Part shown: in pieces, positions 1 to 39,067 of the stretch | Position numbering within the stretch: position 1 is the first letter of the stretch | How the letters are laid out: each line of letters starts with the position of its first letter | Source of the DNA: Spirochaetia bacterium | GTDB lineage: Bacteria; Spirochaetota; Spirochaetia; WTKD01; G963693115 | Direction: 5' to 3' | Assembly: GCA_965216965.1 (NCBI GenBank) | Contig: CBDCGX010000003.1 | Span: 24,033-88,032, forward strand | DNA length: 64,000 nucleotides | Made by a program: the position numbers and the translations under genes | Notes under the pieces: model-generated | Seen by the model: the letters and a program-made list of their open reading frames with translations, nothing else | What the model was told of the DNA's origin: nothing | The model's database searches: none

Positions 1-1700
<1,700 letters not shown>

Positions 1701-1773
1701 GCGTAAAAAATTGTGAGATTATATAGCATTTTTTTATATATGTAGAACACATAGCTGATAAAATGCATTATCC

Positions 1774-3216: not shown

Positions 3217-3251
3217 TATGTAGCAACGGTAAAAATTATATAATATGTAAT

Positions 3252-4584
3252 ATGCATTGTAAAAGCACACGATATTTTTTAGACACAACTAATCATGTTT
3301 TTGATAACACTGGTGTGTCATTTACGGATGCTGTATTTGAAGGACTTGCTTTAGACGGAGGACTATATTATCCTTCGTCAATAATAGATCTATCTCAAAT
3401 TATTTTATCTTTACCTCATGATATATCGTTTGTAGATCTTTGTATTAAAATTACCTATGGGTTGTTTTCGGATGAGTTTTCTATGGAAGAGGTAGAAAAA
3501 ATATGTAAACGAGCATTTTCTTTTTCTCCCATAGTGAGTCCCATAAATGATGAAATAATTTTATTGGAATTATTTCATGGACCTTCTTGTGCTTTTAAAG
3601 ATTTTGGAGCAGCATATCTTGCTTCGGTAATGGATCTTCATCTTAGTAAGACACGTTCACACACAACTATACTTACTGCTACAAGTGGAGATACTGGTGG
3701 AGCGGTTGCACAAGCTTTTTTTAGAAAAGAAAATATTAGAGTGTTTATTTTGTACCCGTCAGGGAGAGTAAGCCCTTTGCAAGAAAAACAGCTTACCGGA
3801 TTAGGGGGAAATATTATTGCACTTGAGGTAGATGGAAGTTTTGATGATTGTCAAAGAATGGTGAAAAAGATATTTGCTGATGAAGAATTAAGAAGTAAAA
3901 CCCTCCTTACGTCGGCAAATAGTATTAATATAGGGAGACTTATTCCGCAATCGTTTTATTATATATATGCTTGGAATATGCTAAGGCGTAGATGTGGTGA
4001 TGATATACTTTTTTTCTGTGCCAAGTGGTAATTTTGGGAATCTAACGGCTGGACTTTTGGCATGGAGGTGGGGAGTTCCACTTAAGCATTTTGTTGCAGC
4101 TACGAATAGAAATAAAATAGTTCCCGAATATATTAAAACAGGGATATATGCGCCACAGCCTTCTATACACACAATTGCAAATGCCATGGATGTTGGAGAT
4201 CCCAGTAATTTTGCACGAATGAAAGTGCTTTTTAATGAAATAAATATTCCTATGAGAGATATTATTTATGGAGAGTGGGTAACTGATTCTGATATTAAAA
4301 GTACTATACAAGATGTTTTTAATAAGGAAAAGAGGTATATTTGTCCTCATACAGCTGCGGGAGTCAAAGCTGCCCAAAGAGTTATAAAAAAGACTTCGTA
4401 TAATCAGGCAGTGGTACTTGCAACTGCAGCTGCGGGCAAGTTTTCTGAAGTTATAGAGTCAATATGTGGAGAAAAACCGCTATTTCCTCATCAATTAGAG
4501 ATGTTTTTGGATAAGATGATGTGTGTGAGGCATATTTCTACAGATGAACAGATTGTAAAAGACATAATTTGCTCTTTTTTGTAG
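3252..4584 (+). pseudogene. thrC: threonine synthase, split into two overlapping ORFs (3252-4031, 3994-4584) by a 1-nt frameshift
   Basis: HGPSCAFKDFGA (PLP-lysine motif) and TATSGDTGGA lie in the first ORF; FSVPSGNFGNLTAG and DVGDPSNF lie in the second. The frames switch at a T7 run (4009-4015). T6 would read ..DDILFSVPSGNFGN.. as one ORF of about 443 codons. Confidence 0.85.
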
Positions 4585-4625
4585 CATGGAAACTTTTGTT
4601 TTTTAAATATTGTAGAAAACTTAAT

Positions 4626-4652
4626 TAAATTGCTTAAAAGAATAACCGATTA
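4626..4652 (+). promoter_or_regulatory. possible sigma-28 (FliA)-type promoter: TAAA (4626-4629) - N15 - ACCGATTA (4645-4652)
   Basis: Spacing is exactly that of the TAAA-N15-GCCGATAA consensus. The -10 matches 6/8 including the CCGAT core. It ends 22 nt before the ATG at 4675. Confidence 0.35.
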
Positions 4653-4674
4653 TTAATATAGGTATATTAATAAC

Positions 4675-7473
4675 ATGAATGAAAAACAGTTACGAGCATT
4701 TGAAAAACACCTATTAAAGTTTGGAGATGAGCAAAGATCTGAAGAGAAGCCTTTTGTTTCGATTTTTGACATGACTAGCACTGAAAGTTTTTTTAAACAA
4801 CAAAAAGAAAAACTTTCTAGTCTTTTAAAGAGTGTTATTCCTGAAAATTTAGATGAAGAAGATGAGGATGATACTAAAGATACCATTGATGATAGAGAAA
4901 CACCTACTAAGCAAAAAACTGAGATAGTAACAAAAGATGCTTTAGCACAAACAGGGGAAGGGGGAGAGGAAGCTACTTTTCCTGGAGATTCTGATAATGA
5001 TATTGATTTTGAAGAAGAGATTGAAGAATCTGAAGAAGAGATCAGTGAGATAGAAGAGGAGTTAGAACAAGAGATAGAGGAAGAAATTGAAGGACCAGTT
5101 GCATTTGGGCTTCCTTCGGAGTATAAGGACTTTAAGGATTATTTACTTCCATCTGTAGATGATGTATTTAGACCACTTTTAAAACATACTGCAATTTCTG
5201 ATATTGTTCTTGCGGGAACCGATAATCTTAAAATAGATGAAGATATTGATGAAAAGATATTAGAAGATGATTATGACTTTTTTGAACAAAAAAAAGCACA
5301 GGAAGCTGAAAAAGATCTAACGGAAGATGATAAGAAATTATTCTTATCAAACTTAGATTCATATAATGTCTTTATAAAGAAAACAATTATACATATTTTA
5401 ACGACTAATGAATTAAGCGAAGAGTGTCGGAAGCTTATAAGACTTGTGATTAATGGAGCAAGGGCAAGAAGTGTTTTACACGAGTGTGAAAAAATACTAA
5501 ATATAGAGTTGAATGTTCCTAGTGATTGGGTAATATATACAAATAAATCTCTCAAAACAAAGTTGTTGGGTGCTGCTGAAATAATTCAAATGACAGTGTA
5601 TTTTGTTGGTGTTAGCGTTTTCCCAATTGTTGCAAGCATTACTGTTATCTTTTTTATTAGTTTCTATTTTATTGTAGAACCAGTTCGGGCTCTTATACAA
5701 TATAGATCAGGATATGAGGCATTGATAGGTGAAAATTATGAAAAAAGTGAGAAATGTTTTGTAAGAGCATCAAGTATATGGCATATGCAAAAATATTATT
5801 TCAAATATGCCAATGAATATATTACTCAAAAAAAATACGGAGAAGCACAGAAGAAATATGAACAACTTCTTTTTGGGTTAGATAATACTTTGAGAAAGTA
5901 TGTTAAGGAATCTGTTTTAAATAAAAAATATTCGTCATTACATTATGTAGGAGGACAATATAGACAATTGAATACATTTGTCAATTTTTCTCGTAAGGGG
6001 TTTAATAGACTTGTCTCATTAGAAAGGGATGTGTTTTTAAATTTTGATACTGTGGAAAGATACCAGGGTTTTTGGATTATAAAATTTCCATCTGATAAGA
6101 AAATGTATATGTCAATTGGAGACACCTATGTACAATGGTATGATATAAATAAAGAAAAATATCTCTTAGATAAGGCACTTGAAAATTATTCTAAGGCAAT
6201 TATAATTTCAAACTCTTCTGATGAATCATTACTTAGGCGAGTACGGTATGCGGTAAGAGTAGGAGAGGAAGAGTATTTAAATAAAATACAACGGGTATTG
6301 TTAATGCCAAAAGAAAAGGCTGATATAGATATTGTATTTAATCCATATATGGAGCTTGTTGAATATAGAATAAATAAAGGACAGGCAAACTATGTAGCAG
6401 AATTATTAGATAAAATACGTGTTACACACCCAGATTATTCTGAAATACCCTATCTGTATGCATTGTACTATGGAATGATAGGAGACTCTAATAAATATAA
6501 GCAATCTCTTTTAGAGGCAAAGCAAAGATATGCTTCGGAGACGTTATATGGGAAAAAATATATTCGTGCGATTAATGTTAATATTTTGTTGGCAAAATAC
6601 ATGTTAGATCAAGAAGTAAATATCAAGGCAGCAAATAATATTTTATATACTGCAGAAAAGCAATATACAGACATAAAAAGAATATCTCGATTAAAAGATA
6701 TTTCTGTAATAGAAATGAGGATATACCTTTTAAAAACAAAGATTGAATTATTAAATAATAATGTAAATCGTGCACAAGTATACTTGTCAAAAATAGTAGA
6801 TACAGAAAATAAAGATGCAGATACCATTGGATATTATCAAGGATTAATATATTATTTATCAAGGGATTTTAGCAAGGCATCTAAATTATTTGTATCATTT
6901 ATAAATAAAAAAACTGAAGAACTTTCATTTGATAATATAAAAGAGTTTAAGAGTGCAATCGTAGATGTTGATTCTGATGTGTATAGTTATGTATACCCTC
7001 GTAATAGTATTATAAATACACCATTAAAGAATAAAGAAGACATATTCTTAGTAACGGGAAACGCTCTACACCTTGCAGAAAACTATGCTGTATCTGCAGT
7101 AATGTATCAAAAAGCGATAGAGAGTATACGTGATAGCAATATAGAAGAAATAGGAAGAAAGGATATTCAATATAAAACCTCTCTCTATAGGTTGTCTCAG
7201 TTGTTAATAACTGTAAAAAATAATCTGGGAGTGTCTTTATATTATTTGTCTCAAACAAAAAACAACTCTGATGAGTCTAATAATTTATTAGAAGAGTCTC
7301 TCAAGAACTTAAGAGATGCAAATACAATGGTCCAAAACCTTTATAGAGATAGCAATGAAAGTACTCGTTTATTTAGGGTTGATTTGCCCGAGCAGAATAT
7401 CTCACAAATATTAAATAATAAAGATAATCTTTCTATTTATTCTGATATTGGATTCCTTTTTAAAGAATTATAA
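4675..7473 (+). CDS. hypothetical 932-aa protein: acidic N-terminal region, central hydrophobic hairpin, long TPR-like helical C-terminal region
   Basis: Long uninterrupted ORF. Glu/Asp runs (EEEIEESEEEISEIEEELEQEIEEEIEG). One ~35-aa hydrophobic stretch (MTVYFVGVSVFPIVASITVIFFISFYFIV). After that, repeated Y/A/K-rich helical segments typical of TPR-like repeats (e.g. YEKSEKCFVRAS, KKYGEAQKKYEQLL, ALENYSKAIII). Confidence 0.6.
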   Translation: MNEKQLRAFEKHLLKFGDEQRSEEKPFVSIFDMTSTESFFKQQKEKLSSLLKSVIPENLDEEDEDDTKDTIDDRETPTKQKTEIVTKDALAQTGEGGEEATFPGDSDNDIDFEEEIEESEEEISEIEEELEQEIEEEIEGPVAFGLPSEYKDFKDYLLPSVDDVFRPLLKHTAISDIVLAGTDNLKIDEDIDEKILEDDYDFFEQKKAQEAEKDLTEDDKKLFLSNLDSYNVFIKKTIIHILTTNELSEECRKLIRLVINGARARSVLHECEKILNIELNVPSDWVIYTNKSLKTKLLGAAEIIQMTVYFVGVSVFPIVASITVIFFISFYFIVEPVRALIQYRSGYEALIGENYEKSEKCFVRASSIWHMQKYYFKYANEYITQKKYGEAQKKYEQLLFGLDNTLRKYVKESVLNKKYSSLHYVGGQYRQLNTFVNFSRKGFNRLVSLERDVFLNFDTVERYQGFWIIKFPSDKKMYMSIGDTYVQWYDINKEKYLLDKALENYSKAIIISNSSDESLLRRVRYAVRVGEEEYLNKIQRVLLMPKEKADIDIVFNPYMELVEYRINKGQANYVAELLDKIRVTHPDYSEIPYLYALYYGMIGDSNKYKQSLLEAKQRYASETLYGKKYIRAINVNILLAKYMLDQEVNIKAANNILYTAEKQYTDIKRISRLKDISVIEMRIYLLKTKIELLNNNVNRAQVYLSKIVDTENKDADTIGYYQGLIYYLSRDFSKASKLFVSFINKKTEELSFDNIKEFKSAIVDVDSDVYSYVYPRNSIINTPLKNKEDIFLVTGNALHLAENYAVSAVMYQKAIESIRDSNIEEIGRKDIQYKTSLYRLSQLLITVKNNLGVSLYYLSQTKNNSDESNNLLEESLKNLRDANTMVQNLYRDSNESTRLFRVDLPEQNISQILNNKDNLSIYSDIGFLFKEL

Positions 7474-8388: not shown

Positions 8389-9618
8389 ATGAGTAGAGTC
8401 CGAACCTTATTTTTTCTATCTTGTGTATTCTTATCTTTTTCTTTTGGAGTACTATTTACGGTGTTTTTTCTTCCTGCAAAAAAGACATCTAATGATCAAT
8501 GCACTTCTATCACATGTACTACAGATGGTACTAAAGATTCTGTCAAGGTAGAAAAAGCAAGTACTCGTTTTTTAGAAAATACGCAGAAAGCTACAAATGA
8601 TTTTCTATCTGATGAAGATATAAATATTCGTGTATATGATCTTAGAAATAAAGGCGTAGTAAATATTACCACAGAGATATTAGCTTATAACTGGTTTTTT
8701 GAGCCTGTGCCCAAGGATGGTAATACCGGGTCAGGTTCAATAATAGATAAGCGAGGATATATTCTCACCAACTATCATGTAATTGCAGGCAGTCAACGTC
8801 TTTTTGTAACTCTTTGGGATGAAACAAGGGTTGAAGCTCAAATAATAGGAAGTGATGTAGAAAATGATCTTGCAATTTTAAAAATTGACGTTAAAAACAA
8901 AAATCTTGAAATTATTCCTATAGGTGATTCAGAATTGCTTCGCGTAGGTCAAAAAGTTATTTCTATAGGAAATCCTTTTGGTTTTGATAGAACGCTTACG
9001 ACGGGAGTTATATCTGGACTAAGGCGACCTATACGGAATAGTAATAATATTGTTATTCGTGACATGATACAAACCGATGCATCTATAAACCCCGGAAATA
9101 GTGGAGGACCTTTATTAGATTCGGAGGGAAACATTATAGGAGTAAACACTCTTATTTATAGTCCTACAAGAGGATCTATCGGTTTGGGGTTTGCTGTTCC
9201 CGCTGCAACTGTGAGACGAGTAGTTGATGATATTTTTACATATGGAAAAGTACAACGAGGATGGATAGAATGGAAGGTTCAGCCACTTTTTGGTGAGCTT
9301 GTGAAATACGCAAATCTTCCTGTAAATAAGGGACTTCTTGTTGTAAGTCTTCCAAAAACAAGTAATGCATATAAAATAGGTATTCGTGGGGGAAATAAAA
9401 ACAAGGCTATTCGATATGGAAGAACTATTATTTATATGGGAGGAGATATTATCACAAATATAAACGGCATTACAGTTTTCTCAACTTCTGGTTTATTGGA
9501 GGCATTAGAGCAGACTCGTCCTGGAGATGTAGTTAAAATAGAGTATATAAGGAAGAATAAAAAGAAGAAGGTAAATCTCATACTTTCTGATCGCCCTAAA
9601 GATTTAGTCATAGAATAA
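8389..9618 (+). CDS. htrA: HtrA/DegP-family serine protease with one PDZ domain, N-terminal membrane anchor
   Basis: Catalytic triad contexts TNYHVI, DLAILKI and GNSGGPL. C-terminal PDZ-like region (GLLVVSL...GDIITNINGI). Confidence 0.85.
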   Translation: MSRVRTLFFLSCVFLSFSFGVLFTVFFLPAKKTSNDQCTSITCTTDGTKDSVKVEKASTRFLENTQKATNDFLSDEDINIRVYDLRNKGVVNITTEILAYNWFFEPVPKDGNTGSGSIIDKRGYILTNYHVIAGSQRLFVTLWDETRVEAQIIGSDVENDLAILKIDVKNKNLEIIPIGDSELLRVGQKVISIGNPFGFDRTLTTGVISGLRRPIRNSNNIVIRDMIQTDASINPGNSGGPLLDSEGNIIGVNTLIYSPTRGSIGLGFAVPAATVRRVVDDIFTYGKVQRGWIEWKVQPLFGELVKYANLPVNKGLLVVSLPKTSNAYKIGIRGGNKNKAIRYGRTIIYMGGDIITNINGITVFSTSGLLEALEQTRPGDVVKIEYIRKNKKKKVNLILSDRPKDLVIE

Positions 9619-9619
9619 G

Positions 9620-11632
9620 ATGAAATCGCAATATTGTGTTCATACTTCGCATGTACCGTTTAAAATACAGTCTCCGTTTTCTGTAGCGGGAGATCAATCT
9701 ATTGCCATTTCAAAAATAATAAAAGGAATCAATGACAATCAAAAATTTCAAACGCTTAAAGGCGTAACAGGATCTGGAAAAACATACAGCATGGCAAAAA
9801 TTGTAGAAAAAATACAACGACCTACATTAGTACTATCTCATAATAAAACACTCGCAGCACAGTTGTATAGAGAATTTAAAGATTTTTTTCCTAATAATGC
9901 AATAGAGTATTTTGTCTCGTATTATGATTATTATCAGCCAGAAGCATATGTTCCTGGAAAAGATTTATTTATAGAAAAGGATGCGTCTATAGACGATGAA
10001 ATAAAGCGCTTGAGGCTTTCGGCGACTACAAGTTTGTATTCTCGGTTAGATGTGCTTATTGTGGCAACCGTAGCGTGTATTTATGGACTAGGAAATCCCG
10101 AAGCATATTCTTCAATGGCGATTGAGCTGTGTGTAGGAGAAGAACCAAGCCTTTCCGTTTTAAGTACTAAATTAGTAAATCTTCAGTATGAGAGAAATGA
10201 TGTTGCGTTAGAACAGTCTCGATTTAGAATACAAGATGATTGTATAGATATTTATCCTGCTTATGAAGAATGCATATATAGAGTTATTATGGAGTGGGAA
10301 AAAATAATAAGGATACAGAGACTTCATCCCATTACTTTTGAAATAGAAAGAGAGCAAGATCGATTATGCATATTCCCCGCAAACCACTTTGTAACACCAA
10401 AAGATCAGATGGATATTGCTATTAAAGAAATAAAAAAAGAATTAAAAGAATATCATTCATTTTTGACGAAAAATGATAATTTGATAGAAGCTCAAAGAAT
10501 TAAGTCTCGAACAGAATATGATCTTGAGATGCTTGCAGAATTGGGTTTTTGTACAGGAATAGAAAATTATTCCATGCACATGTCTGGAAGGAAAACTGGT
10601 GAGAGACCGGCAGTTTTATTTGATTATTTCCCTAATGATTTTTTACTGTTTATAGATGAATCGCACGTAAGCATTCCTCAAATTAGGGCAATGTATGCTG
10701 GAGATAGAGCAAGAAAAGAAAATCTTGTTAAGTATGGATTTAGGCTCCCATCGGCAAAGGATAATAGGCCCCTTACATTTAAAGAATTTGAAGAGGTAAT
10801 AAATAATTGTATTTTTGTTTCTGCTACTCCGGGTCCTTATGAAATAGAACACTCACAGAATATTGTAGAACAAGTTATCCGACCTACAGGATTACTTGAT
10901 CCAATTATATTAGTACAAAAGACAGAGGGGCAAGTAGAAGATCTTATTAATCGAATGAAAAAATGTATTTTAAGAAATGAAAGAATCTTAGTTACCACTC
11001 TTACTAAAAAAATGGCAGAACATCTTGCCGATTATTTTGTTGAGTTGGGGATAAAGGGAGCATATATTCATTCTGATTTGGGAACAGTTGAGCGGGTAGA
11101 AATACTTATAAAATTGAGGAATGGAGAGATTGATGTTCTTGTAGGAGTTAATTTATTGAGAGAAGGATTAGACCTTCCTGAGGTTTCGTTGGTGGCAATA
11201 TTTGATGCAGATAAGATAGGATTCCTTCGTTCCTCCACAGCTCTTATACAAACTATAGGCAGAGCTGCTCGAAATGTAAATGGATGTGTTATTATGTATG
11301 CTGATAAAGAAACCGATGCTATGCGAAGTGCTATTGATGAAACAAATAGGCGAAGAACTATCCAGCATAATTATAATCAACAACATGGAATAACACCAAC
11401 AACAATTAAAAAGGCAGTAAAAAACATCCTTGAGCGATCTATTGAAATAAAGAAAGATGCAATAAAGCACTCAATGGAATTTATAAAATCAAGTTATAAT
11501 ATTCTTGTGCCCAAAGAAAGAAAACAACTTATAAAAAAACTAGAAGATCAAATGAATGAACATGCAGAACGATTAGAGTTTGAAGAGGCAGCAGTTGTTC
11601 GTGATGAAATACAGGAGTTAAAAAAGACGTGA
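9620..11632 (+). CDS. uvrB: excinuclease ABC subunit B
   Basis: GVTGSGKTY Walker A, YYDYYQPEAY, FIDESHV, VGVNLLREGLDLPEVSLV, C-terminal UVR motif LEFEEAAVVRDEIQELKK. Confidence 0.95.
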   Translation: MKSQYCVHTSHVPFKIQSPFSVAGDQSIAISKIIKGINDNQKFQTLKGVTGSGKTYSMAKIVEKIQRPTLVLSHNKTLAAQLYREFKDFFPNNAIEYFVSYYDYYQPEAYVPGKDLFIEKDASIDDEIKRLRLSATTSLYSRLDVLIVATVACIYGLGNPEAYSSMAIELCVGEEPSLSVLSTKLVNLQYERNDVALEQSRFRIQDDCIDIYPAYEECIYRVIMEWEKIIRIQRLHPITFEIEREQDRLCIFPANHFVTPKDQMDIAIKEIKKELKEYHSFLTKNDNLIEAQRIKSRTEYDLEMLAELGFCTGIENYSMHMSGRKTGERPAVLFDYFPNDFLLFIDESHVSIPQIRAMYAGDRARKENLVKYGFRLPSAKDNRPLTFKEFEEVINNCIFVSATPGPYEIEHSQNIVEQVIRPTGLLDPIILVQKTEGQVEDLINRMKKCILRNERILVTTLTKKMAEHLADYFVELGIKGAYIHSDLGTVERVEILIKLRNGEIDVLVGVNLLREGLDLPEVSLVAIFDADKIGFLRSSTALIQTIGRAARNVNGCVIMYADKETDAMRSAIDETNRRRTIQHNYNQQHGITPTTIKKAVKNILERSIEIKKDAIKHSMEFIKSSYNILVPKERKQLIKKLEDQMNEHAERLEFEEAAVVRDEIQELKKT

Positions 11633-13634: not shown

Positions 13635-14756
13635 TTAAGATTTGTTTTTTATATCATGCCATTCTATGTTTTTGTAAGAAGAGATTGTTTTTTTTGCATT
13701 ATAAGAAGTAATGTAAGGATATAATTCTGATGTAAGTCCGCAGGGAATGTTTTGTTCGCTTCGTAAGAAAGTACAGTTTGCTTTGGTAAAAGATTCTCCC
13801 TCTTTTACTGCACATTGTGTAAAAAGACTTCTTCTACTTGTATGATAGTGCGAATATAGTGGAGCACTCCAAGAAAGAGGGCGTGGTGATATGGTATTGT
13901 TTTTTGTTCCATGTACGCATTCGTTGTATACTTCTTGACCATATGTCCTTTTAACATAAGGGATTCTTTCTTTTTCTGGGAGCGATATGGTAGTATTTAC
14001 ATCATTTACCATTTTTGAAAATTCTGAGGGAGTAAGTGCTATGGGATCGTCGGGGGATGTACCATGAGAATCTAGCGTAAAATGCTTTTCTGTTACTGTG
14101 CTTCCAAGTGCAGCGGCTATACTTGCAAGTATGGAGCTATTAGTACTGTGGTCAGATATGCCTAGTGTGCAATTAAAAAGGCTTTTGTATTTTAGAAGTA
14201 ACAAGAGTTTGTATTCAGCTAGCTCTGCAGGATAACGAGTTACGCATCTAAGAATAGTGATGTTGTCTTCATTAGACACATTTGTGATAATTTTGAGAGC
14301 ATTATATATATCTATAAGAGATGCAAGACCTGTTGAAAGGATTATTTGTACATGTGTTTTTTTCTTATAAAGTGCTATAGCGTTGAGGAGCGTGGTATAG
14401 TTTATCTCAGGAGAGGCAATTTTTATTCTTATTGGAGAAAGTTTTTGTAAAAGGGATAAAGATTGATGACCAAAAACACTGCATAAAAATTGTAGATTGC
14501 GCGATTCGGCGTAATCTTTTATGCTTTTGTAAAACTCAAAAGGTTTTTCTACAGACTTGAAGTATTTATAAATATCTATATTTCTTGTAGGCACTGCTAT
14601 ATGACCAGTATAGGGAGAGACTATTTCGTTTGCGATAACCCATTGGAATTTTACAGTGTGTGCTCCCGCATCTTTTGCAGCATCTATAAGTCTTTTTGCG
14701 TTAGAAACAGAACCAAGATGCGAAGTTCCTATTTCTGCTATGTATTCATGATTCAT
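13635..14756 (-). CDS. NeuB-family nonulosonic acid synthase (N-acetylneuraminate/pseudaminate/legionaminate synthase-like)
   Basis: N-terminal IAEIGTSHLGSVSNAKRLIDAAKDAGAHTVKFQ matches the NeuB TIM-barrel start. GISDHS motif. C-terminal extension consistent with a SAF domain. Confidence 0.8.
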   Translation of the reverse strand: MNHEYIAEIGTSHLGSVSNAKRLIDAAKDAGAHTVKFQWVIANEIVSPYTGHIAVPTRNIDIYKYFKSVEKPFEFYKSIKDYAESRNLQFLCSVFGHQSLSLLQKLSPIRIKIASPEINYTTLLNAIALYKKKTHVQIILSTGLASLIDIYNALKIITNVSNEDNITILRCVTRYPAELAEYKLLLLLKYKSLFNCTLGISDHSTNSSILASIAAALGSTVTEKHFTLDSHGTSPDDPIALTPSEFSKMVNDVNTTISLPEKERIPYVKRTYGQEVYNECVHGTKNNTISPRPLSWSAPLYSHYHTSRRSLFTQCAVKEGESFTKANCTFLRSEQNIPCGLTSELYPYITSYNAKKTISSYKNIEWHDIKNKS

Positions 14757-27717: not shown

Positions 27718-29367
27718 CTATAGTGCAATATTTCTAAGTTTTTGGAATAATGCTGTTTGTTCAATGGGGGTTAATTTTCCAAAGACATTTAGTACAGTAT
27801 CTTTACATATATTATTTTTTTTATGGCGTACTATTTCTGAAGAAGAGGATGATCTTTCTTCTTGTAATGTGTCTTTTAGAATATTTTCCCATGTATGTAT
27901 GTGCTTCTGTAATGTTTTCTTGTTATAGTTATGATGTATTTGTTTAAAAAATATTCGTGGGGCTTTAGATTCTTTCTTTCGGTTTATTGGTATATGCGTT
28001 TGTACAAGAAAATTCATGGTAAGCATATGTGATATGGCACCATTGTTTTTTGTTAGAAGAATAGTTCTTGTTTTTTTTCGATTATCTTTCCAATGAGTAA
28101 ACCATTTTTCATACATAGCGAGAGAAGAGTCTTGTTTTATTGGGTGATTATATCGAGTAATGGAAAGAGAATACGGAAGGTTTATATATGATTTTCTTGT
28201 AATAGAGTCTAGCGTAGATATACGATTCCCATTCCGTTCAGAAGAATAGTTAGTGTGAGGATAACAGTGTGATCCACATATATCTGTGCTTACATCAAAC
28301 CCTACAATATAAACGGTGTTTTTTGTAACATTCCATGCTAGTTCTATGGCAGTTCCCATAACAGTTGCGTAGTATGATAGTTGTATATGCGAAGGGTTAA
28401 GAGCTAATAGTATTTCAGGAAAGTCATTTGTGTGAAGTATTATTATTTTTTCATTATTTTTATAAAAAAGATGTGTTCTTGCTGCACTTATAGGCATTGC
28501 TACGTAAGGCCGTTGTGGTTTGGGGATTTTTGATATGTATTCTTTTATAAGATAATGGATATGAAGATGTTTTTGTGCATAAAAGCTGGCATCTTGGTGT
28601 ACGATAATATCGGGAATTATATCGTTTGCATATAAACATTCGAGAGATGAGCTTGTTGCAATAATAATTATATGGGGTCGGATAGTTTTTAAATATTGTG
28701 TATGGTATAATAAGCTAGGACCTGCACCAATTACTACAGCAGGCAAAGAGCTTGCCTTTTCAATAACATATGAGGCATTTGTGTTTTTATAGTGGAATAC
28801 TGCATTAGATATCCATCTTTTTACAAAAAATGTTTCTGTAATACGTTCTGCTGCAAAGAGCTCTAATACTTCTTTTATTATTTTTAACACCTCTTTCGAT
28901 TGTTTTGTCCATATGGAAAGAGAAGGGTTCCAGTGTAATACAATGATTTCTTGAAGAGAAAATTGACGGAGAAGCGATTGAAGCACTGTATATGTATGTT
29001 TATTGTTGTGATTATAATGTATTATGTTTCCTGACGAAAATATTTCTTCTTCTGATTTTGCTACATAATTTTTATTATGTAGCATATAGTTTTTTTTTGA
29101 AAACATGTAAATTGCTGTGTGTAAATAAATAGAAATTATAGTTGCATCTGGATATTGTTCAATAATAGGATTGTTTTCGTATCCCATTGCTGCTCCTACA
29201 ATTACAAATATTTTAGGGTTTTTATCTTTGTTTTGTGGAGAGAAAAGTTGTTGAGTAATAGTATTTTGGGCTTCTTTATTAGGATTATAAGAAGAATGTA
29301 ATAGTTTCCCATTTATTTTGCATGTAGAGATACCTCTAGGTGATGTGAAAAATAATGGATTATTCAA
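27718..29367 (-). CDS. motility accessory factor (Maf, DUF115) family protein, putative nonulosonic-acid flagellin glycosyltransferase; TTG start overlapping the upstream stop
   Basis: N-terminal LHSSYNPNKEA motif, central VVIGAGPSL motif followed by IIIIATSSS and IVHQD, then VGFDVS. This layout is as I recall it for Campylobacter/Helicobacter/Aeromonas Maf proteins. Confidence 0.75.
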   Translation of the reverse strand: MNNPLFFTSPRGISTCKINGKLLHSSYNPNKEAQNTITQQLFSPQNKDKNPKIFVIVGAAMGYENNPIIEQYPDATIISIYLHTAIYMFSKKNYMLHNKNYVAKSEEEIFSSGNIIHYNHNNKHTYTVLQSLLRQFSLQEIIVLHWNPSLSIWTKQSKEVLKIIKEVLELFAAERITETFFVKRWISNAVFHYKNTNASYVIEKASSLPAVVIGAGPSLLYHTQYLKTIRPHIIIIATSSSLECLYANDIIPDIIVHQDASFYAQKHLHIHYLIKEYISKIPKPQRPYVAMPISAARTHLFYKNNEKIIILHTNDFPEILLALNPSHIQLSYYATVMGTAIELAWNVTKNTVYIVGFDVSTDICGSHCYPHTNYSSERNGNRISTLDSITRKSYINLPYSLSITRYNHPIKQDSSLAMYEKWFTHWKDNRKKTRTILLTKNNGAISHMLTMNFLVQTHIPINRKKESKAPRIFFKQIHHNYNKKTLQKHIHTWENILKDTLQEERSSSSSEIVRHKKNNICKDTVLNVFGKLTPIEQTALFQKLRNIAL

Positions 29368-31859
29368 TGTGTTTTATAATCACGATGAATCCCAAGAGAT
29401 TTACATAATTTCATATAATCTTTGTAAACAGGGTGAGCTATAAAGGAGGCATATACATTAGAGGGTAGTTTTTCTATATGTTCTTGAAGAAATGTAAGAA
29501 TCCTTTGTAACAGATTTCTTTGTTGTTTAGAAACATGTTGTGGAAAAGATATTTTTTTTACTGGTTGATTGCTAGTATTGTATCTCATCTGCCGCATATT
29601 TTGTATCCTTTCCGAAGATTTAAGCAAATATTTTATACGGCGTTCTAATTGAGTAAGTTTTCTATCTAGGACAGTATAGTGATTTCTTGAAACAGCGTGT
29701 GAAAAGGGCGACATGGTGGAGTGTTCCTTTATTGATGAGGACTTCAAATACTTTATAGAGGCTTTTGTTCGGTAAGGTGTCTTTATTGTCTTTGTAGGAG
29801 CTGTAATAAGATATGAAGAAGGTTTTTGACTTTTCTTTTTATAAATAACATCATTTCCATTTTTATTTATGACGTTGACAACTTCATTTAGACTTAAGGG
29901 AGCAGAGTCATTTTCGTCTGCTATAGAGGAATTATGTATGCTGTTATTGTTATCAGTGCTAGTGGTCTTTATAATTGACATGCTATTGTTATAGGGGGGA
30001 TTATCTGTTATTTCTGAAGTGTCTTTTTTTATTTGAAACGATTCATATGATTTATCGATTTCTAAAGTACTAGAGCGGCTTTCTGTATTATCTTTTTCTA
30101 AAGGTATAAGATTATTGGTCTTTGGTGTATTATTTGTGCTTATATTTAAAGATATAGCGGTGTTTTTAGACGCTGTATCGCTATTCTCAATTGTATTAGT
30201 CGTTTTTGTTTCAAGAATTGTATGTAGTTCGTTTTCATCTAAGGCACTAGAAGTATTGAGGAAATCACTTTCATGATTGTCATCTTTTTTTGGAGGTGTA
30301 GGTGAGTGTTCTTGTGATATATTTTCCTTTCCATCTAAGGCACTAGAAGTATTGAGGAAATCACTTTCATGATTGTCATCTTTTTTTGGAGGTGTAGGTG
30401 AGTGTTCTTGTGATATATTTTCCTTTCCATCTAAGGCACTAGAAGTATTGAGGAAATCACTTTCATGATTGTCATCTTTTTTTGGAGGTGTAGGTGAGTG
30501 TTCTTGTGATATATTTTCCTTTCCATCTAAGGCACTAGAAGTATTGAGGAAATCACTTTCATGATTGTCATCTTTTTTTGGAGGTGTAGGTGAGTGTTCT
30601 TGTGATATATTTTCCTTTCCATCTAAGGCACTAGAAGTATTGAGGAAATCACTTTCATGATTGTCATCTTTTTTTGGAGGTGTAGGTGAGTGTTCTTGTG
30701 ATATATTTTCCTTTCCATCTAAGGCACTAGAAGTATTGAGGAAATCACTTTCATGATTGTCATCTTTTTTTGGAGGTGTAGGTGAGTGTTCTTGCGATAT
30801 ATTTTCCTTTCCATCTAAGGCACTAGAAGTATTGAGGAAATCACTTTCATGATTGTCATCTTTTTTTGGAGGTGTAGGTGAGTGTTCTTGCGATATATTT
30901 TCCTTTCCATCTAAGGCACTAGAAGTATTGAGGAAATCACTTTCATGATTGTCATCTTTTTTTGGAGGTGTAGGTGAGTGTTCTTGTGATATGTTTTTTT
31001 TAGTAGATGAGAGTGTGGAAGTGTTTGTGTTTGAAGGGTTGTGAGGTACATATATTCCATTGCTATTCTCAATTGTATTAGTCGTTTTTGTTTCAAGAAT
31101 TGTATGTAGTTCGTCTTCATCTAAGGCACTAGAAGTATTGAGGAAATCACTTTCATGATTATCGTCTTTTTTTGGAGGCATGGGGGTGTTGCTTTGTGAT
31201 ATATTTTTTTCTTTAGCAGATGGAAGTGTGGGATTGTCTATATTTGGGGTGTTGGTATCTGCAGAGGCTTGGTTTTTATTAGTTGTTTGTGTGGAAGTGC
31301 TGGTTGCTTCAAGAATTGTGAGCAATTCATTTTTACTTAAAACACCATAATCGGAAGATGTATGTGTTGTATTGTTATCTTGTTTAAGAGAAGAGTCATG
31401 TTTAGGCGTGGTTGTGTTGTTTGACACAAATACGTTCTTATTTTCTAAAGAAGAGGGTATATTTTCAGAATTTGAGATGTCTTTTTTATTGGAAGAATTA
31501 GAAAGAGGAATGGGAGTATTCTCTTCTTTTGAGGAGCTGTTTTTTCCAAACAATGCATTAAATTCATTTTTATTAAGAGAATATGAGGATCCCATACTAT
31601 CTTGATCAGATGAAGTGGAGTGGTTTCCCCCATTGTTCTTGACGATCTTGTCAGAGTGTTTATTTATTTCATCATGTAAGTCTATATCGTGATGCGGCGA
31701 AGAGAAGGGAGGAGAAGTTTCTTGTTCTCTATGTGCGGTTTCAAGATTACTTTCTTTAAAAGAAATAGAGCTATAGCTATCCTGTTCTAAAGGCAAGTCT
31801 TTCTCATTTTCTCCATTTTCATCAATGGGTGAATCTATATATAGCATTATTTTAGACAC
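29364..31859 (-). CDS. hypothetical 831-aa acidic Ser/Thr/Asn/Pro-rich repeat protein with a basic C-terminal ~150 aa; no signal peptide
   Basis: Uninterrupted ORF through a perfectly in-frame 96-nt repeat array. AAGGAG 11 nt before the ATG. The stop overlaps the Maf start (TTGA). Confidence 0.8.
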   Translation of the reverse strand: MSKIMLYIDSPIDENGENEKDLPLEQDSYSSISFKESNLETAHREQETSPPFSSPHHDIDLHDEINKHSDKIVKNNGGNHSTSSDQDSMGSSYSLNKNEFNALFGKNSSSKEENTPIPLSNSSNKKDISNSENIPSSLENKNVFVSNNTTTPKHDSSLKQDNNTTHTSSDYGVLSKNELLTILEATSTSTQTTNKNQASADTNTPNIDNPTLPSAKEKNISQSNTPMPPKKDDNHESDFLNTSSALDEDELHTILETKTTNTIENSNGIYVPHNPSNTNTSTLSSTKKNISQEHSPTPPKKDDNHESDFLNTSSALDGKENISQEHSPTPPKKDDNHESDFLNTSSALDGKENISQEHSPTPPKKDDNHESDFLNTSSALDGKENISQEHSPTPPKKDDNHESDFLNTSSALDGKENISQEHSPTPPKKDDNHESDFLNTSSALDGKENISQEHSPTPPKKDDNHESDFLNTSSALDGKENISQEHSPTPPKKDDNHESDFLNTSSALDGKENISQEHSPTPPKKDDNHESDFLNTSSALDENELHTILETKTTNTIENSDTASKNTAISLNISTNNTPKTNNLIPLEKDNTESRSSTLEIDKSYESFQIKKDTSEITDNPPYNNSMSIIKTTSTDNNNSIHNSSIADENDSAPLSLNEVVNVINKNGNDVIYKKKSQKPSSYLITAPTKTIKTPYRTKASIKYLKSSSIKEHSTMSPFSHAVSRNHYTVLDRKLTQLERRIKYLLKSSERIQNMRQMRYNTSNQPVKKISFPQHVSKQQRNLLQRILTFLQEHIEKLPSNVYASFIAHPVYKDYMKLCKSLGIHRDYKTH
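30235..31002. repeat. tandem array, 8 x 96 bp, near-identical (encodes GKENISQEHSPTPPKKDDNHESDFLNTSSALD x 8)
   Basis: Unit starts at 30235, 30331, 30427, 30523, 30619, 30715, 30811 and 30907. The only internal differences seen are C instead of T at 30795 and 30891 (synonymous TCA/TCG on the coding strand) and divergence at the two outer edges. Confidence 0.95.
31061..31215. repeat. diverged extra copy of the array's left flank plus one unit (compare 30179-30330)
   Basis: gctattctcaattgtattagtcgtttttgtttcaagaattgtatgtagttcgt followed by a unit-like segment occurs at both 30179 and 31061 with a few substitutions. It encodes the duplicated peptide DDNHESDFLNTSSALDE[DN]ELHTILETKTTNTIENS. Confidence 0.85.
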
Positions 31860-31900
31860 TCCTTGTCTTTTGCGAACATAATAATCTTCCTTCGTTTAGC

Positions 31901-31927
31901 TTATCGGCATATAGCTATATTTCTTTA
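31901..31927 (-). promoter_or_regulatory. sigma-28 (FliA) promoter: TAAA (31927-31924) - N15 - GCCGATAA (31908-31901) on the minus strand
   Basis: The reverse complement of 31901-31927 is TAAAgaaatatagctatatGCCGATAA, an exact match to TAAA-N15-GCCGATAA. It ends 41 nt upstream of the ATG at 31859, in a 170-bp AT-rich intergenic region. Confidence 0.65.
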
Positions 31928-32688: not shown

Positions 32689-33990
32689 ATGTATTCAATA
32701 GAACACCTTGCGTTAAGGATGCCAGACTTGCTTCTTCCCAATAAAGAGATAGATTTATACGCGTGGAGCGTAATTGCGTGTGATCAATTTACGAGTGATG
32801 TTTCATATTGGGATAAAGTTGCACATATCGTAAAGGATAAACCATCAACGTTTCGTCTTATGCTTCCAGAAATTTATATAGAATTACACAAGGAATTACT
32901 TCCTCAGTATTTTGAATCAATAAGGAGTCATACGCGTACATATCTCAAAAATTCAATATTTACTACTCACAAAGACTGCTTTTTACTTGTAAAACGAAAA
33001 ACATTGCAGAATCGAACTCGGTATGGGATTATGATGCAAATTGATTTGGCTCAGTATGATCCCAATCCTCATGCAAATACAATTATAAAATCTACTGAAG
33101 CGATAGTTTCGTCTCGTCTTCCAAAGCGTATAGAAATGCGTAAAAACACTATGCTTGATTTACCACATGTGCTCATGCTTTATAATGACCCTGAGAAGGT
33201 ACTCGTTCAAGCTTTACTCAAAATAGTGGAGAAGACTGCATATTCTACAGATCTTATGTTAGGAGGGGGGCATGTTACAGGTTTTTTTTGTAATAGAGAA
33301 GAAGGTAAAAAGAAAATAGAAGCTATTTTAGGTAGTATATTTAGGGAAACCATTAGTAATAATAAACATACTCTTTTTGCTGTGGGAGATGGTAATCACT
33401 CTTTGATGGCAGCAAAGCAGGTATGGCAAGATAGAGGCAGTAATATGAATGCTCCAGAACGATGGGCTCTTGTTGAACTTGTAAATGTTTTTGATGAGGG
33501 ATTGCCCGTAGAACCAATACATAGAGTGCTTTTTGATGCAGATTATAAAATGTTGTGTAGTACATTACAATCTCAAGGAGATATTGTTGAATACGAGAAA
33601 ATTTCAGATGCAAAACAACATAGTAAGAAAACGTCTGCAATTGTAGCATATAGAAATAATAGTAATTCCATGGTATATGCATTGTGGCATCCTCATAACA
33701 CACATGATATTACTGTTCTTAACTTTGAGAAAATATTAGAAAAAAATGAGAATTGTTATAAAAAAATAGATTTCACTCATGAGGAAGAATATTCTCTTTC
33801 TTTTTCTGAGAAGAAAGAATCAAAAAATATAACTATTATACTTCCCCACATACCAAAAGAATGTATCTTTGAATATGTGTATTCTCATACTGTTTTTCCT
33901 CGAAAATCATTCTCACTTGGAGAGGCAGAAGAAAAACGTTACTATATAGAAGCGTGCTTGCATTCTTCTGAAGAGAATGGGATTTTATAG
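32689..33990 (+). CDS. DUF1015-family protein
   Basis: Size (~430 aa), N-terminal LLLPNKEIDLYAWSVIACDQFTS and central FAVGDGNHSL resemble the DUF1015 family as I recall it. Confidence 0.55.
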   Translation: MYSIEHLALRMPDLLLPNKEIDLYAWSVIACDQFTSDVSYWDKVAHIVKDKPSTFRLMLPEIYIELHKELLPQYFESIRSHTRTYLKNSIFTTHKDCFLLVKRKTLQNRTRYGIMMQIDLAQYDPNPHANTIIKSTEAIVSSRLPKRIEMRKNTMLDLPHVLMLYNDPEKVLVQALLKIVEKTAYSTDLMLGGGHVTGFFCNREEGKKKIEAILGSIFRETISNNKHTLFAVGDGNHSLMAAKQVWQDRGSNMNAPERWALVELVNVFDEGLPVEPIHRVLFDADYKMLCSTLQSQGDIVEYEKISDAKQHSKKTSAIVAYRNNSNSMVYALWHPHNTHDITVLNFEKILEKNENCYKKIDFTHEEEYSLSFSEKKESKNITIILPHIPKECIFEYVYSHTVFPRKSFSLGEAEEKRYYIEACLHSSEENGIL

Positions 33991-34077: not shown

Positions 34078-34563
34078 TTAACCCGTTGCTGTGGAATTAG
34101 CAGGTTTTATTTGAGAAGACATATTGCTTTTTAAATCATATGCATAAGAATTTTTTTGCATATGTATTATATATATTGAATATATAATGAGCATGATTAT
34201 AAATGCAGAAAAAAACAATATTGGAATAGATACAAAAAAGGATTCTCTATCTTGTATAATAATTCCCGGAGTGTATGATGCTGCGGTGCTAAAGATGGGA
34301 GTATCAAGTCGAATGAGATATTCGTTTTCTGAAAGAAGACCTACTCTATGTGCGTTCATTGTAATATATGCTTTATTGGTATGAGCGAGGTAAGATTGTT
34401 CGGTCAGTGATTTCTTTATTGTTTTTAAACTTTCAACGTTCCTTTCTAATTTATTTGTTATGGATCGTTCCCCTATAAAAGAAATAATACCTCCTTTTGC
34501 AAAAATAAGCTGTAAAAAGAAGAACATACATAAAAAAGTAAAAATAATATTTCCTATGCGCAT
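34078..34563 (-). CDS. hypothetical membrane protein (possibly FtsB/DivIC-like septation protein)
   Basis: N-terminal TM helix followed by a short coiled-coil-like segment (NKLERNVESLKTIKKSLTEQ), a second TM near the C-terminus. Divergent from ftsZ. Confidence 0.4.
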   Translation of the reverse strand: MRIGNIIFTFLCMFFFLQLIFAKGGIISFIGERSITNKLERNVESLKTIKKSLTEQSYLAHTNKAYITMNAHRVGLLSENEYLIRLDTPIFSTAASYTPGIIIQDRESFFVSIPILFFSAFIIMLIIYSIYIIHMQKNSYAYDLKSNMSSQIKPANSTATG

Positions 34564-36083: not shown

Positions 36084-37052
36084 GTGGAATGCTGTTGTGT
36101 GTAATGTAGACTGTAAAGAACGTATTAAACAACAATTCCTAGATTATCTTGTTATAGAATGTCATGTTCAGAAAAACACTGTAGAAACATATATAGCAGA
36201 GATAGAACGGTTTTTAACATTTTGTAAAAAAAAAATATTATCCTTGCAGATTGCACAATACATAAAATACAACAATATATTTTATTTCGAAACGGTGATA
36301 ATGAAGTAAAAGTTGAACATATATCATCTTCTTCTTATTCAAAGCAAACCAATAAAGGAATATCTTCTAATACAATACGAAAGATAGCCTCGGCCCTTAA
36401 GACATTTTTTAAATTTTGCATACTTGAAGATATCTGCAAGATCAATCCCATGAATGTACTCACGTTGCCTAAGGTGGAAAAACATATCCCAAGAGTTCTT
36501 GAGTCAGATCACATTCTTTCTTTTTTAGAAAGAATAGATGTATCTACTTACTTAGGGATTCGTGATAGAGCATTGTTTGAGCTTATGTATGCATGCGGTA
36601 TGAGGGTGAGTGAGGTGGTACATATATTGATTCCACATCTTATGCTTGATGAGGCACTTATTAGAATAAGAGGGAAAGGGGATAAAGAAAGAATAGTGCC
36701 TATCGGGAAACAGGCGCTCTTATGGGTTAAAAAATATCTTAAAGAAGTACGACCGCATCTTAGTAAGAGAAGCTCATCACATACAGATTCGCTTTTCCTC
36801 AATTTTAGAGGGAAAACACTTTCTCGTAAAGGTATTTGGAAAAACTACAAAGAGTTACTTGGACCAATACAAGCAAGTTTACATACTCTTAGACATTCGT
36901 TTGCAACGCATCTTTTGCAAGGAGGAATGGATCTTAGAGTTGTACAGGAGCTACTGGGGCATGCAGACCTTAGTACAACGCAAATATACACACATGTACA
37001 GGACAAAGCACTCCAACATGCTCATAAGAAATATCACCCCAGAAATAAATAA
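36064..37052 (+). pseudogene. xerD: XerD-like tyrosine recombinase split by a frameshift in an A10 tract (36226-36235)
   Basis: The N-terminal ORF gives FLDYLVIECHVQKNTVETYIAEIERFLTF (core-binding domain). The frame open from 36228 reads KKNIILADCTIHKIQQYILF...IRKIASALKTFFKFCILEDICKINP and runs into the catalytic domain ([45 protein letters not shown]). A11 would make one ORF. Confidence 0.8.
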
Positions 37053-37172
37053 TAGGTAAGGGTTTTAATATTAACATATAGGGAATTGTTACAATTAGAA
37101 GTCATGTTATATTATTGTGATAGGTAATGCCTTACATACAGTCAAAATATAGTTGGCATATGTATTATATAT

Positions 37173-38135
37173 ATGAGATATTTTTTTGACGAACCTTTAC
37201 AGACACTTACTTTTTTATCTCGTGTTAGTTTTTTAAAGCCTTTAGAGAAATATACTCTTATACAGAAGGGGTACGTATGCTCTGATTTTATAAAGATGAG
37301 CACTGCAAATCTTTCTCAAATACTTGGGCGAAAGATTCGCAGTACTCAATGGATTATTCCCACCATATTAAGGAAAACATATTATGATGTTCAGTGGATA
37401 AAGAAAGATAATAAAAACAGATGGCTGTGTTCAATTTTTGAAAAAGAGTACCCAGTACTTTTAAAAAAGATAACAGATCCTCCCATATTACTTTATGGTA
37501 TGGGGAACAAAAGCGCATTGCATAACGCATGTATTGCGGTGGTTGGCACTAGAAAACCTGATTATAAAGGAAGAAATGCTTCATATGATATAGGCATGTA
37601 TATTGCAAAGAGAGGTTATAGTCTTGTTTCTGGGCTTGCATACGGAATAGATATTGCGACGCATAGGGGAATGATCTATTATGGGAGCAAAACCGTACTG
37701 AAATTATCTAAATATTCCGATAATAATAATGGTACAAAGAATGGTGATACAAATGCTATTAAACTTGGTTTTGGTGTAGTTGTGTTAGGTACAGGAATAG
37801 ATAATATATATCCCAAGTGTCATAAAAATGATGCAATGCGAATATTAAGTATGGGAGGAACGATCATAAGTGAAATACCCCCAGTATCTGCTGATCTTGT
37901 GAGAAAACATTCGTTTATTGGAAGAAATAGAATTATAAGCGGGTTGAGTAATGACGTAATAATAATACAATGCCCACATAAGTCAGGAGCATTGGCAACA
38001 GCCGACTTTGCACTTGAACAAGGAAGAACAGTATGGGTTCATAAAAGCGGTATACATAAAGGTTTTGAGGGAACTCAAAAATTATATGATGAAGGAGCAA
38101 TGGTTTTTAGAAAACCAGAGGAACTATTTTTATAA
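37173..38135 (+). CDS. dprA: DNA-processing protein DprA (Smf)
   Basis: [44 protein letters not shown] and [12 protein letters not shown] Rossmann-like core. Confidence 0.85.
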
Positions 38136-38140
38136 AAACA

Positions 38141-39067
38141 ATGAAATATAAACAAAGTGCGATTACAGAAAAAATATTACCAAAGACATATCAAAAACAT
38201 CTTATAGATTTTATAAATAATCTTTCGACAGTGCGGAAATGTAGTATGCATAGCATACATGCATATAGAAGTGATATATACACTTTTTTGCAGTGGTTAT
38301 ATAGCCAGCAATTATTAGTAGAAAATGTGGAATATAAACATGTACGATCGTTTATACGTAGAGAATCATCAAATGGAAAGAGCAATGCAACCCTTAATAG
38401 AAAAATATCATCGTTGCGGAGTTTCTTTGATATGTTATGTCGTAGTGGATACATACAAGATAATAGTGCTTCTATGTTTGCTCTCTTTAAAAAAAAGAAA
38501 CATCTTCCCAATATTATAAGCGAGATTCAACTTAAAGATTTGCTTTCATTTAAAATACACACATTTTTAGATCTACGCGATAAGACTCTTTTTGAGTTTT
38601 TATATTCTACGGGATGTCGCATATCAGAGGCACTTAGTATTGATGCACATGAGGTAATAAATGCTACTTCGCTTATCATTTTTGGGAAAGGGAAAAAAGA
38701 GAGAAAGGTATTTCTTACTTCTGAATGTGTTTCCTTATTATCACATTATCTTCAACAAAGGGATCAAAAGATACAGCACTATAAAAAACCAGAGAATGCA
38801 TTGTTTATTAATAATAATGGGAGGCGATTAAGCAGGAATGGAGCTACGTGGCTTTTATTACAACGCCTTCGCAATTCACATATCTCCTCAATGTCTGTGC
38901 ACGATTTTAGACACTCGTTTGCTACTCATCTTTTAGATAATGGGCTTAATATAAGAGTGGTACAAGAGTTATTAGGACACAGCAATATTAGCACAACCCA
39001 AATATATACGCATATAAGTCGGTCAAATCTTATAGAACAATATAAGAAAGCGCATCCACGTGGTTAG
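38141..39067 (+). CDS. xerC: XerC/XerD-family tyrosine recombinase (intact)
   Basis: [64 protein letters not shown]. Confidence 0.8.

Follow-up and report, generated by a model that had tools for sequence, protein, structure and literature searches.

A divergent copy of the spirochaetal TP_0179 and Maf operon behind a sigma-28-type promoter, a candidate module for flagellin glycosylation

What is the role of a giant, low-complexity cytoplasmic protein whose gene overlaps that of a putative Maf glycosyltransferase, both of them lying behind a flagellar-type promoter? The question is raised by a stretch of 64,000 nucleotides (nt) from a Spirochaetia bacterium (GenBank assembly GCA_965216965.1, contig CBDCGX010000003.1, positions 24,033 to 88,032 of the forward strand), hereafter the window, in which the two genes are read on the minus strand. 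A preliminary description presented them as a self-contained module under the flagellar sigma factor FliA (sigma-28), with the large protein as a possible substrate, chaperone or structural partner of Maf. Far from being an isolated novelty, the pair is a stripped-down and very divergent copy of a widespread spirochaetal operon, which is catalogued and functionally uncharacterised. The reading preferred here has two parts, which jointly are given an even chance of being correct. The region would correspond by orthology to the operon encoding a TP_0179-family protein, Maf-A and, in relatives, Maf-B, in a spirochaete that is AT-rich and deeply divergent; and it would act as a FliA-controlled module for the O-glycosylation of flagellin with nonulosonic acid, the disordered protein serving as an accessory or scaffold for Maf.

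Both open reading frames (ORFs), one of 831 codons from a GTG (29364..31859) and one of 549 amino acids (aa) from a TTG (27718..29367), are found as first described, and so is their overlap. The junction reads ACACATTGAATAAT, in which the TGA stop of the upstream gene (29366-29364) and the TTG start of the downstream gene (29367-29365) overlap as TTGA. No Shine-Dalgarno sequence precedes this TTG, and no alternative in-frame start occurs before the conserved LHSxY motif of the Maf protein. The ORF of the large protein stands, while its GTG start is less probable than another: AAGGAG directly abuts the GTG, therefore the true start is probably ATG 31847, which gives 827 aa and is also the one used in the public gene call.

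The downstream gene encodes a Maf-A-type, MptE-like/DUF115 protein. Pfam PF01973 (MptE-like, formerly DUF115) matches residues 184-360 (nt 28288-28818) with 68.2 bits against a cutoff of 34.6, covering profile positions 2-167 of 171. When a family profile of the window protein and its homologues was compared with the PDB, the best match was the Magnetospirillum Maf (5MU5_A, E 8.1e-11), with the archaeal MptE kinase 8SD5_A following by a modest margin (E 9.2e-7). The suggestion that this ORF is a DUF115/Maf homologue is thus borne out; the Maf_flag10 domain that had been named along with it is not seen, as Maf_flag10_N (PF20157) gave no match in the protein at E <= 0.1, and the sole faint precomputed match to that family lies in a Maf-B of locus L036. 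The closest homologues are just 22-27% identical and all come from genomes of Treponema or other spirochaetes; a metagenome scan with the window Maf found nothing. All 24 invariant columns of the family alignment are kept, GPSL included, and hidden Markov models (HMMs) of the two paralogues score the window enzyme at 191 bits for Maf-A and 57 bits for Maf-B. On these profiles the protein can firmly be classed as an orthologue of the Maf-A type.

The same arrangement recurs in other spirochaetes. Near the Treponema homologues, divIC (minus strand) comes first, then a protein of 943-945 aa, and then two MptE-like genes of about 480 and about 550 aa; the long protein is flagged as PF27359 ("TP_0179") in loci L001-L003 and has no Pfam record in L004. 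A scan of GTDB species representatives, among which the genome of the window did not turn up, fetched loci via their Maf-A match and revealed 21 spirochaete loci in which a full-length TP_0179-type ORF of 532-945 aa precedes Maf-A, either immediately or with one ORF between them; in one more locus, L010, the copy is truncated at the contig end. Nearly all loci that could be assessed have this pairing, and a second Maf usually follows. A look-up in the reverse direction, from three PF27359 matches in other lineages (Alkalispirochaeta among them), led in each to an unannotated ORF of 258-348 aa followed by two MptE-like genes. The pairing, whose conservation in relatives had been set beforehand as a refuting test, is therefore conserved, both in the 21 loci and in the reverse look-up. 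Furthermore, the window shares the synteny anchors DUF1015 (32689-33990, plus strand) and DivIC (34078-34563, minus strand), which are common to TP_0179 loci elsewhere: these neighbours are also found in L001, L004, L018, L036 and L037, the block being inverted in the window. In one Treponema genome (L015), fliM (9102-10130) lies 73 nt downstream of Maf-B.

Two further ORFs accompany the operon in its relatives. An ORF of 240-370 aa without a Pfam family, here called ORF X, lies between the TP_0179 gene and Maf-A in the non-termite lineages (L006 5248-5967, L012 5023-5949, L018 4832-5950, L022 1822-2748, L036 7514-8290, L037 7306-8199, L038 343-1389); the window and most Treponema loci from termite guts lack it. 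The other, of about 380-416 aa, is conserved in many Treponema loci at a distance of 0.8-1.8 kb downstream of Maf-B (L008 10437-11585, with equivalents in L009-L011, L017, L020, L022 and L028), and contains a weak GGDEF-domain match in L008, the locus in which the domain was checked.

Members of the TP_0179 family share an N-terminal motif, (E)ELDxYGVWVK, and a body that varies greatly in length and in which Asp+Glu make up 26-41%. Within this body, the block GFFxEEDDExIALTGDELDNILNxADFTEE occurs in one to three copies and contains the conserved motif IALTGDELDNIL. The C-terminus reads LKSELRNILSYMDQLLESLPEEKIEEFAKSEYFDSYKKLFKELGLV, within a domain of about 50 aa with the consensus LSYMDQLLESLPEEKIEEFAKSEYFDxYKKLFxELGL. 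A profile search returned 247 proteins with this C-terminus, all flagged PF27359, and among the matches listed every organism-named entry is spirochaetal; they are annotated as hypothetical proteins (T. pallidum TP0179 and relatives) or, for some entries, automatically named FimV. The earlier statement that no Maf partner of this kind had been described must accordingly be corrected, since the first gene already belongs to a Pfam family, and since GlfM, a Maf partner unrelated to it in size and fold, has also been described.

Most PF27359 database entries are fragments, as the repetitive gene is where assemblies break. In L036 (5216-7279) and L037 (4507-7306), the repetitive acidic region of the TP_0179 gene contains runs of N (scaffold gaps), so that gene callers give only C-terminal fragments of 50-110 aa; such breakage explains the tiny appearance of nearly all members in the databases.

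The fit of the window protein to this family is clearest at its C-terminus, where a three-helix domain is predicted at residues 775-825 (29385..29537, minus strand; predicted local distance difference test, pLDDT, above 90). A BLASTP alignment with the family domain runs end-to-end with 32% identity over 41 residues. An HMM built in this analysis from Treponema C-termini alone ranks the window protein top among the 911 window ORFs, yet with a weak score (10.8 bits, E 0.02 with Z = 911, aligned to HMM positions 3-51), and hhalign gives a probability of 65.6% (P 5.8e-5) over 51 columns. Wider searches are empty: phmmer with the C-terminal 190 aa against 1.84 billion representative proteins returned only the protein itself, and the structural and profile checks of the tail gave neither a PDB fold match by Foldseek (best E 3.2) nor a PDB sequence match.

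A second line of resemblance is found in the body. A regular expression locates LSKNELLTIL at residues 174-183 (31311..31340) and further copies of this motif as LDEDELHTIL (31095-31124), LDENELHTIL (30213-30242) and LSLNEVVNVI (29868-29897), all on the minus strand. The pattern [DEN]E[LIVM]xx[ILV][LIV], picked after seeing the data, occurs four times against 0.04 expected from shuffles; the corresponding family motif is LTGDELDNIL, and its L037 variant LSKDEMDNIL comes closest to LSKNELLTIL of the window. HMMs of the internal block do not match the window ORF, and the link to the TP_0179 family through these degenerate motifs is therefore no more than suggestive. When position, neighbours, promoter and the weak domain match are combined, it is likely that the window protein is an orthologue of the TP_0179 family.

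The promoter ties the pair to flagella. A perfect FliA-type promoter had been noted upstream of the large ORF, and the box TAAAGAAATATAGCTATATGCCGATAA at 31927-31901 of the minus strand is indeed an exact TAAA-N15-GCCGATAA consensus. It is the sole match with at most one mismatch in the 64 kb, for which 0.48 matches per window are expected by chance and exact ones far less often. Among the CCGATA[AT] sites of the window, it is also the only one both intergenic and with TAAA at -35; its orientation is correct, and its distance to the GTG is 42 nt, to ATG 31847 54 nt. For comparison, the sigma-28 promoter mapped by experiment in front of T. denticola flaB2 reads CCGATAA at -10 and TTAA at -35 (PMC9481697). 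Of 20 orthologous loci, 16 have a CCGATAA-type box no more than 120 nt ahead of the TP_0179 start, against 8.9% of background windows; owing to the kinship of the loci, these counts are not independent. In 13 of those upstream regions the box is the strict CCGATAA heptamer, and a TTGACA-type promoter is often found upstream as well. The flanking sequence has diverged across these loci while the box was kept. Flagellar (sigma-28) control of the TP_0179 operon thus looks ancestral, and transcription of the window pair would, to judge from the box, depend on FliA.

Between the box and the main ORF lies an upstream ORF of ten codons (MFAKDKECLK; ATG..TAA) at 31847..31879 on the minus strand. The AAGGAG Shine-Dalgarno sequence (31859-31864) is inside it and its stop overlaps the probable main ATG (TAATG). 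This short ORF may serve coupling or regulation, or be there by chance.

In the mechanism proposed, FliA would transcribe the operon late in flagellar assembly, alongside the flagellin genes, and translation of Maf would restart at the TTGA overlap, so that both proteins are made together. Maf would move a nonulosonic acid, obtained via a NeuB-family synthase, onto Ser/Thr residues of FlaB in the cytoplasm, before export. In this step the giant disordered protein would assist as an accessory or scaffold: docking would take place at its small C-terminal helical domain and at the short motifs inside it, and the low-complexity body would be a spacer that evolves fast. It has been shown that Treponema FlaB carries an O-linked nonulosonic-acid derivative on Ser/Thr of its D1 domain and that this modification is essential for filament assembly (PMC13439194). 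Maf proteins work in the cytoplasm, before flagellin is exported, and in other bacteria they are the established candidates for attaching such sugars to flagellin; flagellin would presumably be the acceptor of the window Maf as well.

Two other genes of the window bear on this mechanism. A NeuB-family nonulosonic-acid synthase is encoded beside serS at 13635..14756 of the minus strand (PF03102, 186 bits; the curated equivalog cutoffs of NeuB_NnaB and PseI are missed, at 208 and 191 bits), 13 kb from the Maf pair. With this gene in the window, the donor-sugar pathway is probably present, though unlinked to Maf, and the synthase is the probable source of the donor sugar. The order neuB-serS-proC-redoxin is found in the relative L035 too. 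At 4675-7473 (plus strand), 22 kb from the pair, an FlcA-like flagellar collar gene (932 aa; NCBIfam FlcA_CTERM 212 bits, below the 300-bit cutoff; no Pfam match) suggests that the organism builds periplasmic flagella of the spirochaete type. The view that the pair stands alone therefore holds for its immediate flanks, a divergent lipid-synthesis gene and the convergent hslVU operon, and is weakened at the scale of the window by the NeuB-family gene and the FlcA-like gene, and also by the second Maf that relatives carry.

The window enzyme was set beside the Maf glycosyltransferases of Magnetospirillum (5MU5), Aeromonas (Maf1), Campylobacter (PseE/Maf) and Clostridium botulinum. Like them, it has a central MptE-like/DUF115 domain above the Pfam cutoff, with 5MU5 nearest to the family profile, and it is cytoplasmic, with a flagellar-type promoter and a NeuB-family gene in the genome. 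Unlike them, it is without Maf_flag10_N and lies outside any island for flagellin or sugar biosynthesis, none such being adjacent. Its partner resembles the PF27359 proteins in being long, low-complexity and cytoplasmic, with a predicted C-terminal three-helix domain of about 50 aa that matches theirs weakly, and in the place of its gene directly upstream of Maf-A, near DUF1015 and DivIC and behind a CCGATAA box. It differs from them in a Ser/Thr/Asn-rich body with 15% Asp+Glu, where theirs are hyper-acidic (26-41%), in an extra basic helical segment of 110 residues and an eightfold repeat, and in the lack of the N-terminal motif, while ORF X and Maf-B are missing at the locus.

A precedent for a Maf cofactor encoded in cis, as is proposed for the window pair, is provided by the tripartite GlfM-Maf-2 system of flagellin glycosylation in Shewanella, Kurthia and Pseudomonas (bioRxiv 10.1101/2023.12.03.569772). 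There, a small helical protein encoded beside maf, GlfM, bridges flagellin and a Maf without its own flagellin-binding TPR domain; it is a four-helix bundle of 89 aa, similar to FliS/FliT, and is usually encoded downstream of maf (bioRxiv 10.1101/2023.12.03.569772). The window partner, in contrast, has 827 aa, is mostly disordered, is encoded upstream and ends in a three-helix domain. A GlfM-like partner was therefore rejected on size, gene order and helix count (one long and three short helices), as judged from the description of GlfM; the window C-terminus also has no PDB fold or sequence match. What points to an accessory role of the disordered protein is its linkage to Maf together with this precedent.

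Several points weigh against flagellin glycosylation by the window pair and against its kinship with the TP_0179 operon. Maf-B, usually present in relatives, was not found by HMM in the 64-kb window, and no fliA, flagellin or CMP-sugar synthetase gene was seen there. The sequence link of the large protein to PF27359 is weak, as the low HMM score, the hhalign probability and the absence of phmmer relatives indicate, and the motif ELDxYGVWVK is absent from its N-terminus by both alignment and HMM. The AlphaFold2 model of the window Maf, made from an alignment of nine sequences, is poor (mean pLDDT 46); the order of its secondary structure (alpha/beta, alpha/beta, helical tail) is compatible with the three-domain plan of Maf. 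In the literature reached, no spirochaete Maf shown to glycosylate flagellin was found, and Maf-like enzymes of Tannerella are known to act on non-flagellar glycans as well (PMC5420450).

If the preferred reading is right, it bears on a gap in spirochaete biology, as the literature found identifies no transferase or cofactor for the glycosylation of spirochaete FlaB. The operon of the TP_0179 protein, Maf-A and Maf-B, behind a sigma-28-type box, is a candidate for this machinery. It includes T. pallidum TP0179, the namesake of the family, which has so far figured only as a "hypothetical" gene that recombines. The window copy would be evidence for the antiquity of the operon, which persists here stripped-down in a very divergent AT-rich spirochaete, and it shows which parts may be dispensable: the N-terminal motif, the extreme acidity, and ORF X and Maf-B at the locus. 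A concrete hypothesis follows, which is genetically testable in T. denticola.

The internal motifs open another way of reading the large protein, as a scaffold of the motor, the chemotaxis apparatus or the cell pole which is merely co-transcribed with the Mafs, and whose L(S/T)xxE(L/I)DxIL motifs mimic the EIDAL of FliM as binding sites for CheY-P or FlhG. It is through EIDAL that FliM binds CheY (PMC6946799). The family motif given above closely resembles the N-terminus of Treponema FliM, VLSQEEIDQLL, and FliM of L015 begins MTEVLSQEEIDQLL; a joint regular expression matches only TP_0179 members, this FliM and one unrelated ORF in 378,859 residues, but it was designed after viewing both sequences. 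The block HMMs match neither FliM nor the window protein, a PDB search was empty, and the Asp of the motif is lost in the window protein (ELLTIL, ELHTIL, EVVNVI). The architecture recalls that of acidic hub proteins of the HubP and FimV type, after which some entries were automatically named: a long acidic low-complexity region, repeats variable in number and a small conserved C-terminal helical domain. The window protein lacks a LysM domain, a transmembrane segment and the C-terminal motif of FimV, and the resemblance is one of architecture only. Sigma-28 control would be compatible with such a scaffold, but so close a linkage to the Mafs in one operon speaks for a common function, and on balance this reading appears unlikely.

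It is also quite improbable that TP_0179 proteins are a spirochaete-specific, FliA-timed cytoplasmic hub in which FliM-like EIDAL peptides bind CheY-P or FlhG while the C-terminal domain docks the Mafs. Were this so, flagellin glycosylation and export would be physically coupled to the C-ring or the cell pole, and the window protein would be such a hub in degenerate form, with expanded repeats.

The composition of the large protein raises the possibility that it is itself modified. The absence of a signal peptide, the acidic Ser/Thr/Asn/Pro-rich body and the basic helical C-terminus, all proposed at the outset, agree with composition and with the AlphaFold2 model. The N-terminus is acidic and without a signal peptide. 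Residues 1-670 have a pI of 4.67 and a net charge of -61, while the last 157 residues have a pI of 10.35 and a net charge of +23, and the segment of residues 671-780 reaches a pI of 10.85. Ser+Thr account for 24% of the protein, Asn for 11% and Pro for 7%, against 12.7%, 5.7% and 3.2% in 15 other window proteins. Helices are predicted at residues 722-762, 778-796, 800-808 and 810-821, with pLDDT mostly above 90. The first of them, a long basic helix (29574..29696, minus strand; pLDDT about 82-95), is lineage-specific and has no counterpart in the Treponema orthologues.

Within the body, a tandem repeat of 96 bp spans 30228..30997 on the minus strand (8.0 copies, 99% identical by Tandem Repeats Finder), its 32-aa unit being GKENISQEHSPTPPKKDDNHESDFLNTSSALD. 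The eight identical 32-aa repeats counted earlier are correct as eight copies of 96 bp; strictly, the protein holds eight identical 29-aa cores and seven full 32-aa units, and an older, diverged copy is found at residues 216-247. The unit may carry the first half of the TP_0179 internal block (SDFLNTSSALD against GFFxEEDDExIAL), a resemblance noticed post hoc, and the repeat looks like an amplification of that half block.

With several Ser/Thr in each of the eight repeats, an excess of these residues over the background, and strict stoichiometric coupling to Maf in its synthesis, the protein could be taken for the substrate of Maf, a cytoplasmic or flagellum-associated glycoprotein with O-glycosylated repeats. 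The enrichment is, however, not a trait of the family, in which orthologues have 10-17% Ser+Thr and 26-41% Asp+Glu, and it accompanies an enrichment in Asn in a genome of 33% GC. As it is lineage-specific, the substrate idea is weakened, and the Ser/Thr richness first taken as pointing to a Maf substrate loses its force. Moreover, the disordered protein has no export signal, and the known Maf acceptors are surface loops of the flagellin D1 domain. Such a substrate role is therefore decidedly doubtful.

That the pair has nothing to do with flagella, the MptE-like enzyme acting on another glycan or cofactor, the big ORF having no conserved function and the box arising by chance in AT-rich DNA, would suit the weak PF27359 link with its lack of phmmer relatives, the MptE-like domains of archaeal pterin kinases (8SD5), the chance expectation for near-matches to the box and the signs of genome decay described below (a split thrC and an integrase fragment), but is very improbable, as the box is exact, correctly oriented, intergenic and close to the start, with its -10 element kept in orthologous loci, an ORF of 831 codons cannot stay open by chance in DNA of 33% GC, the profile is closer to Maf than to MptE, and the synteny spans four genes.

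As for the organism, UvrB places it in the Spirochaetia, with about 61% identity to Salinispira, Marispirochaeta and Spirochaeta thermophila and 70% identity to one metagenomic contig (L035); the GC content of the window is 33%. The relatives reached through UvrB, L034 and L035, share the neuB-serS synteny and have no Maf within 10 kb. Elsewhere in the window, threonine synthase (thrC) is split by a frameshift into overlapping plus-strand ORFs at 3252-4031 and 3994-4584, the first with the N-terminal part and the first half of the PALP domain, the second with the rest of PALP and the C-terminal part; it is either a pseudogene or the result of a sequencing error. In the region 36450-39067 (plus strand), a 200-aa ORF with the catalytic domain of a phage-type integrase only is closely followed by dprA and a full-length XerC/D-like recombinase, and may be a truncated duplicate. 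In L034 (66% UvrB identity, 48% GC), positions 1-5373, upstream of thrS, encode a PseB-like epimerase/dehydratase, a DegT-type aminotransferase and three unannotated ORFs, which may be genes for nonulosonic-acid or other amino-sugar synthesis.

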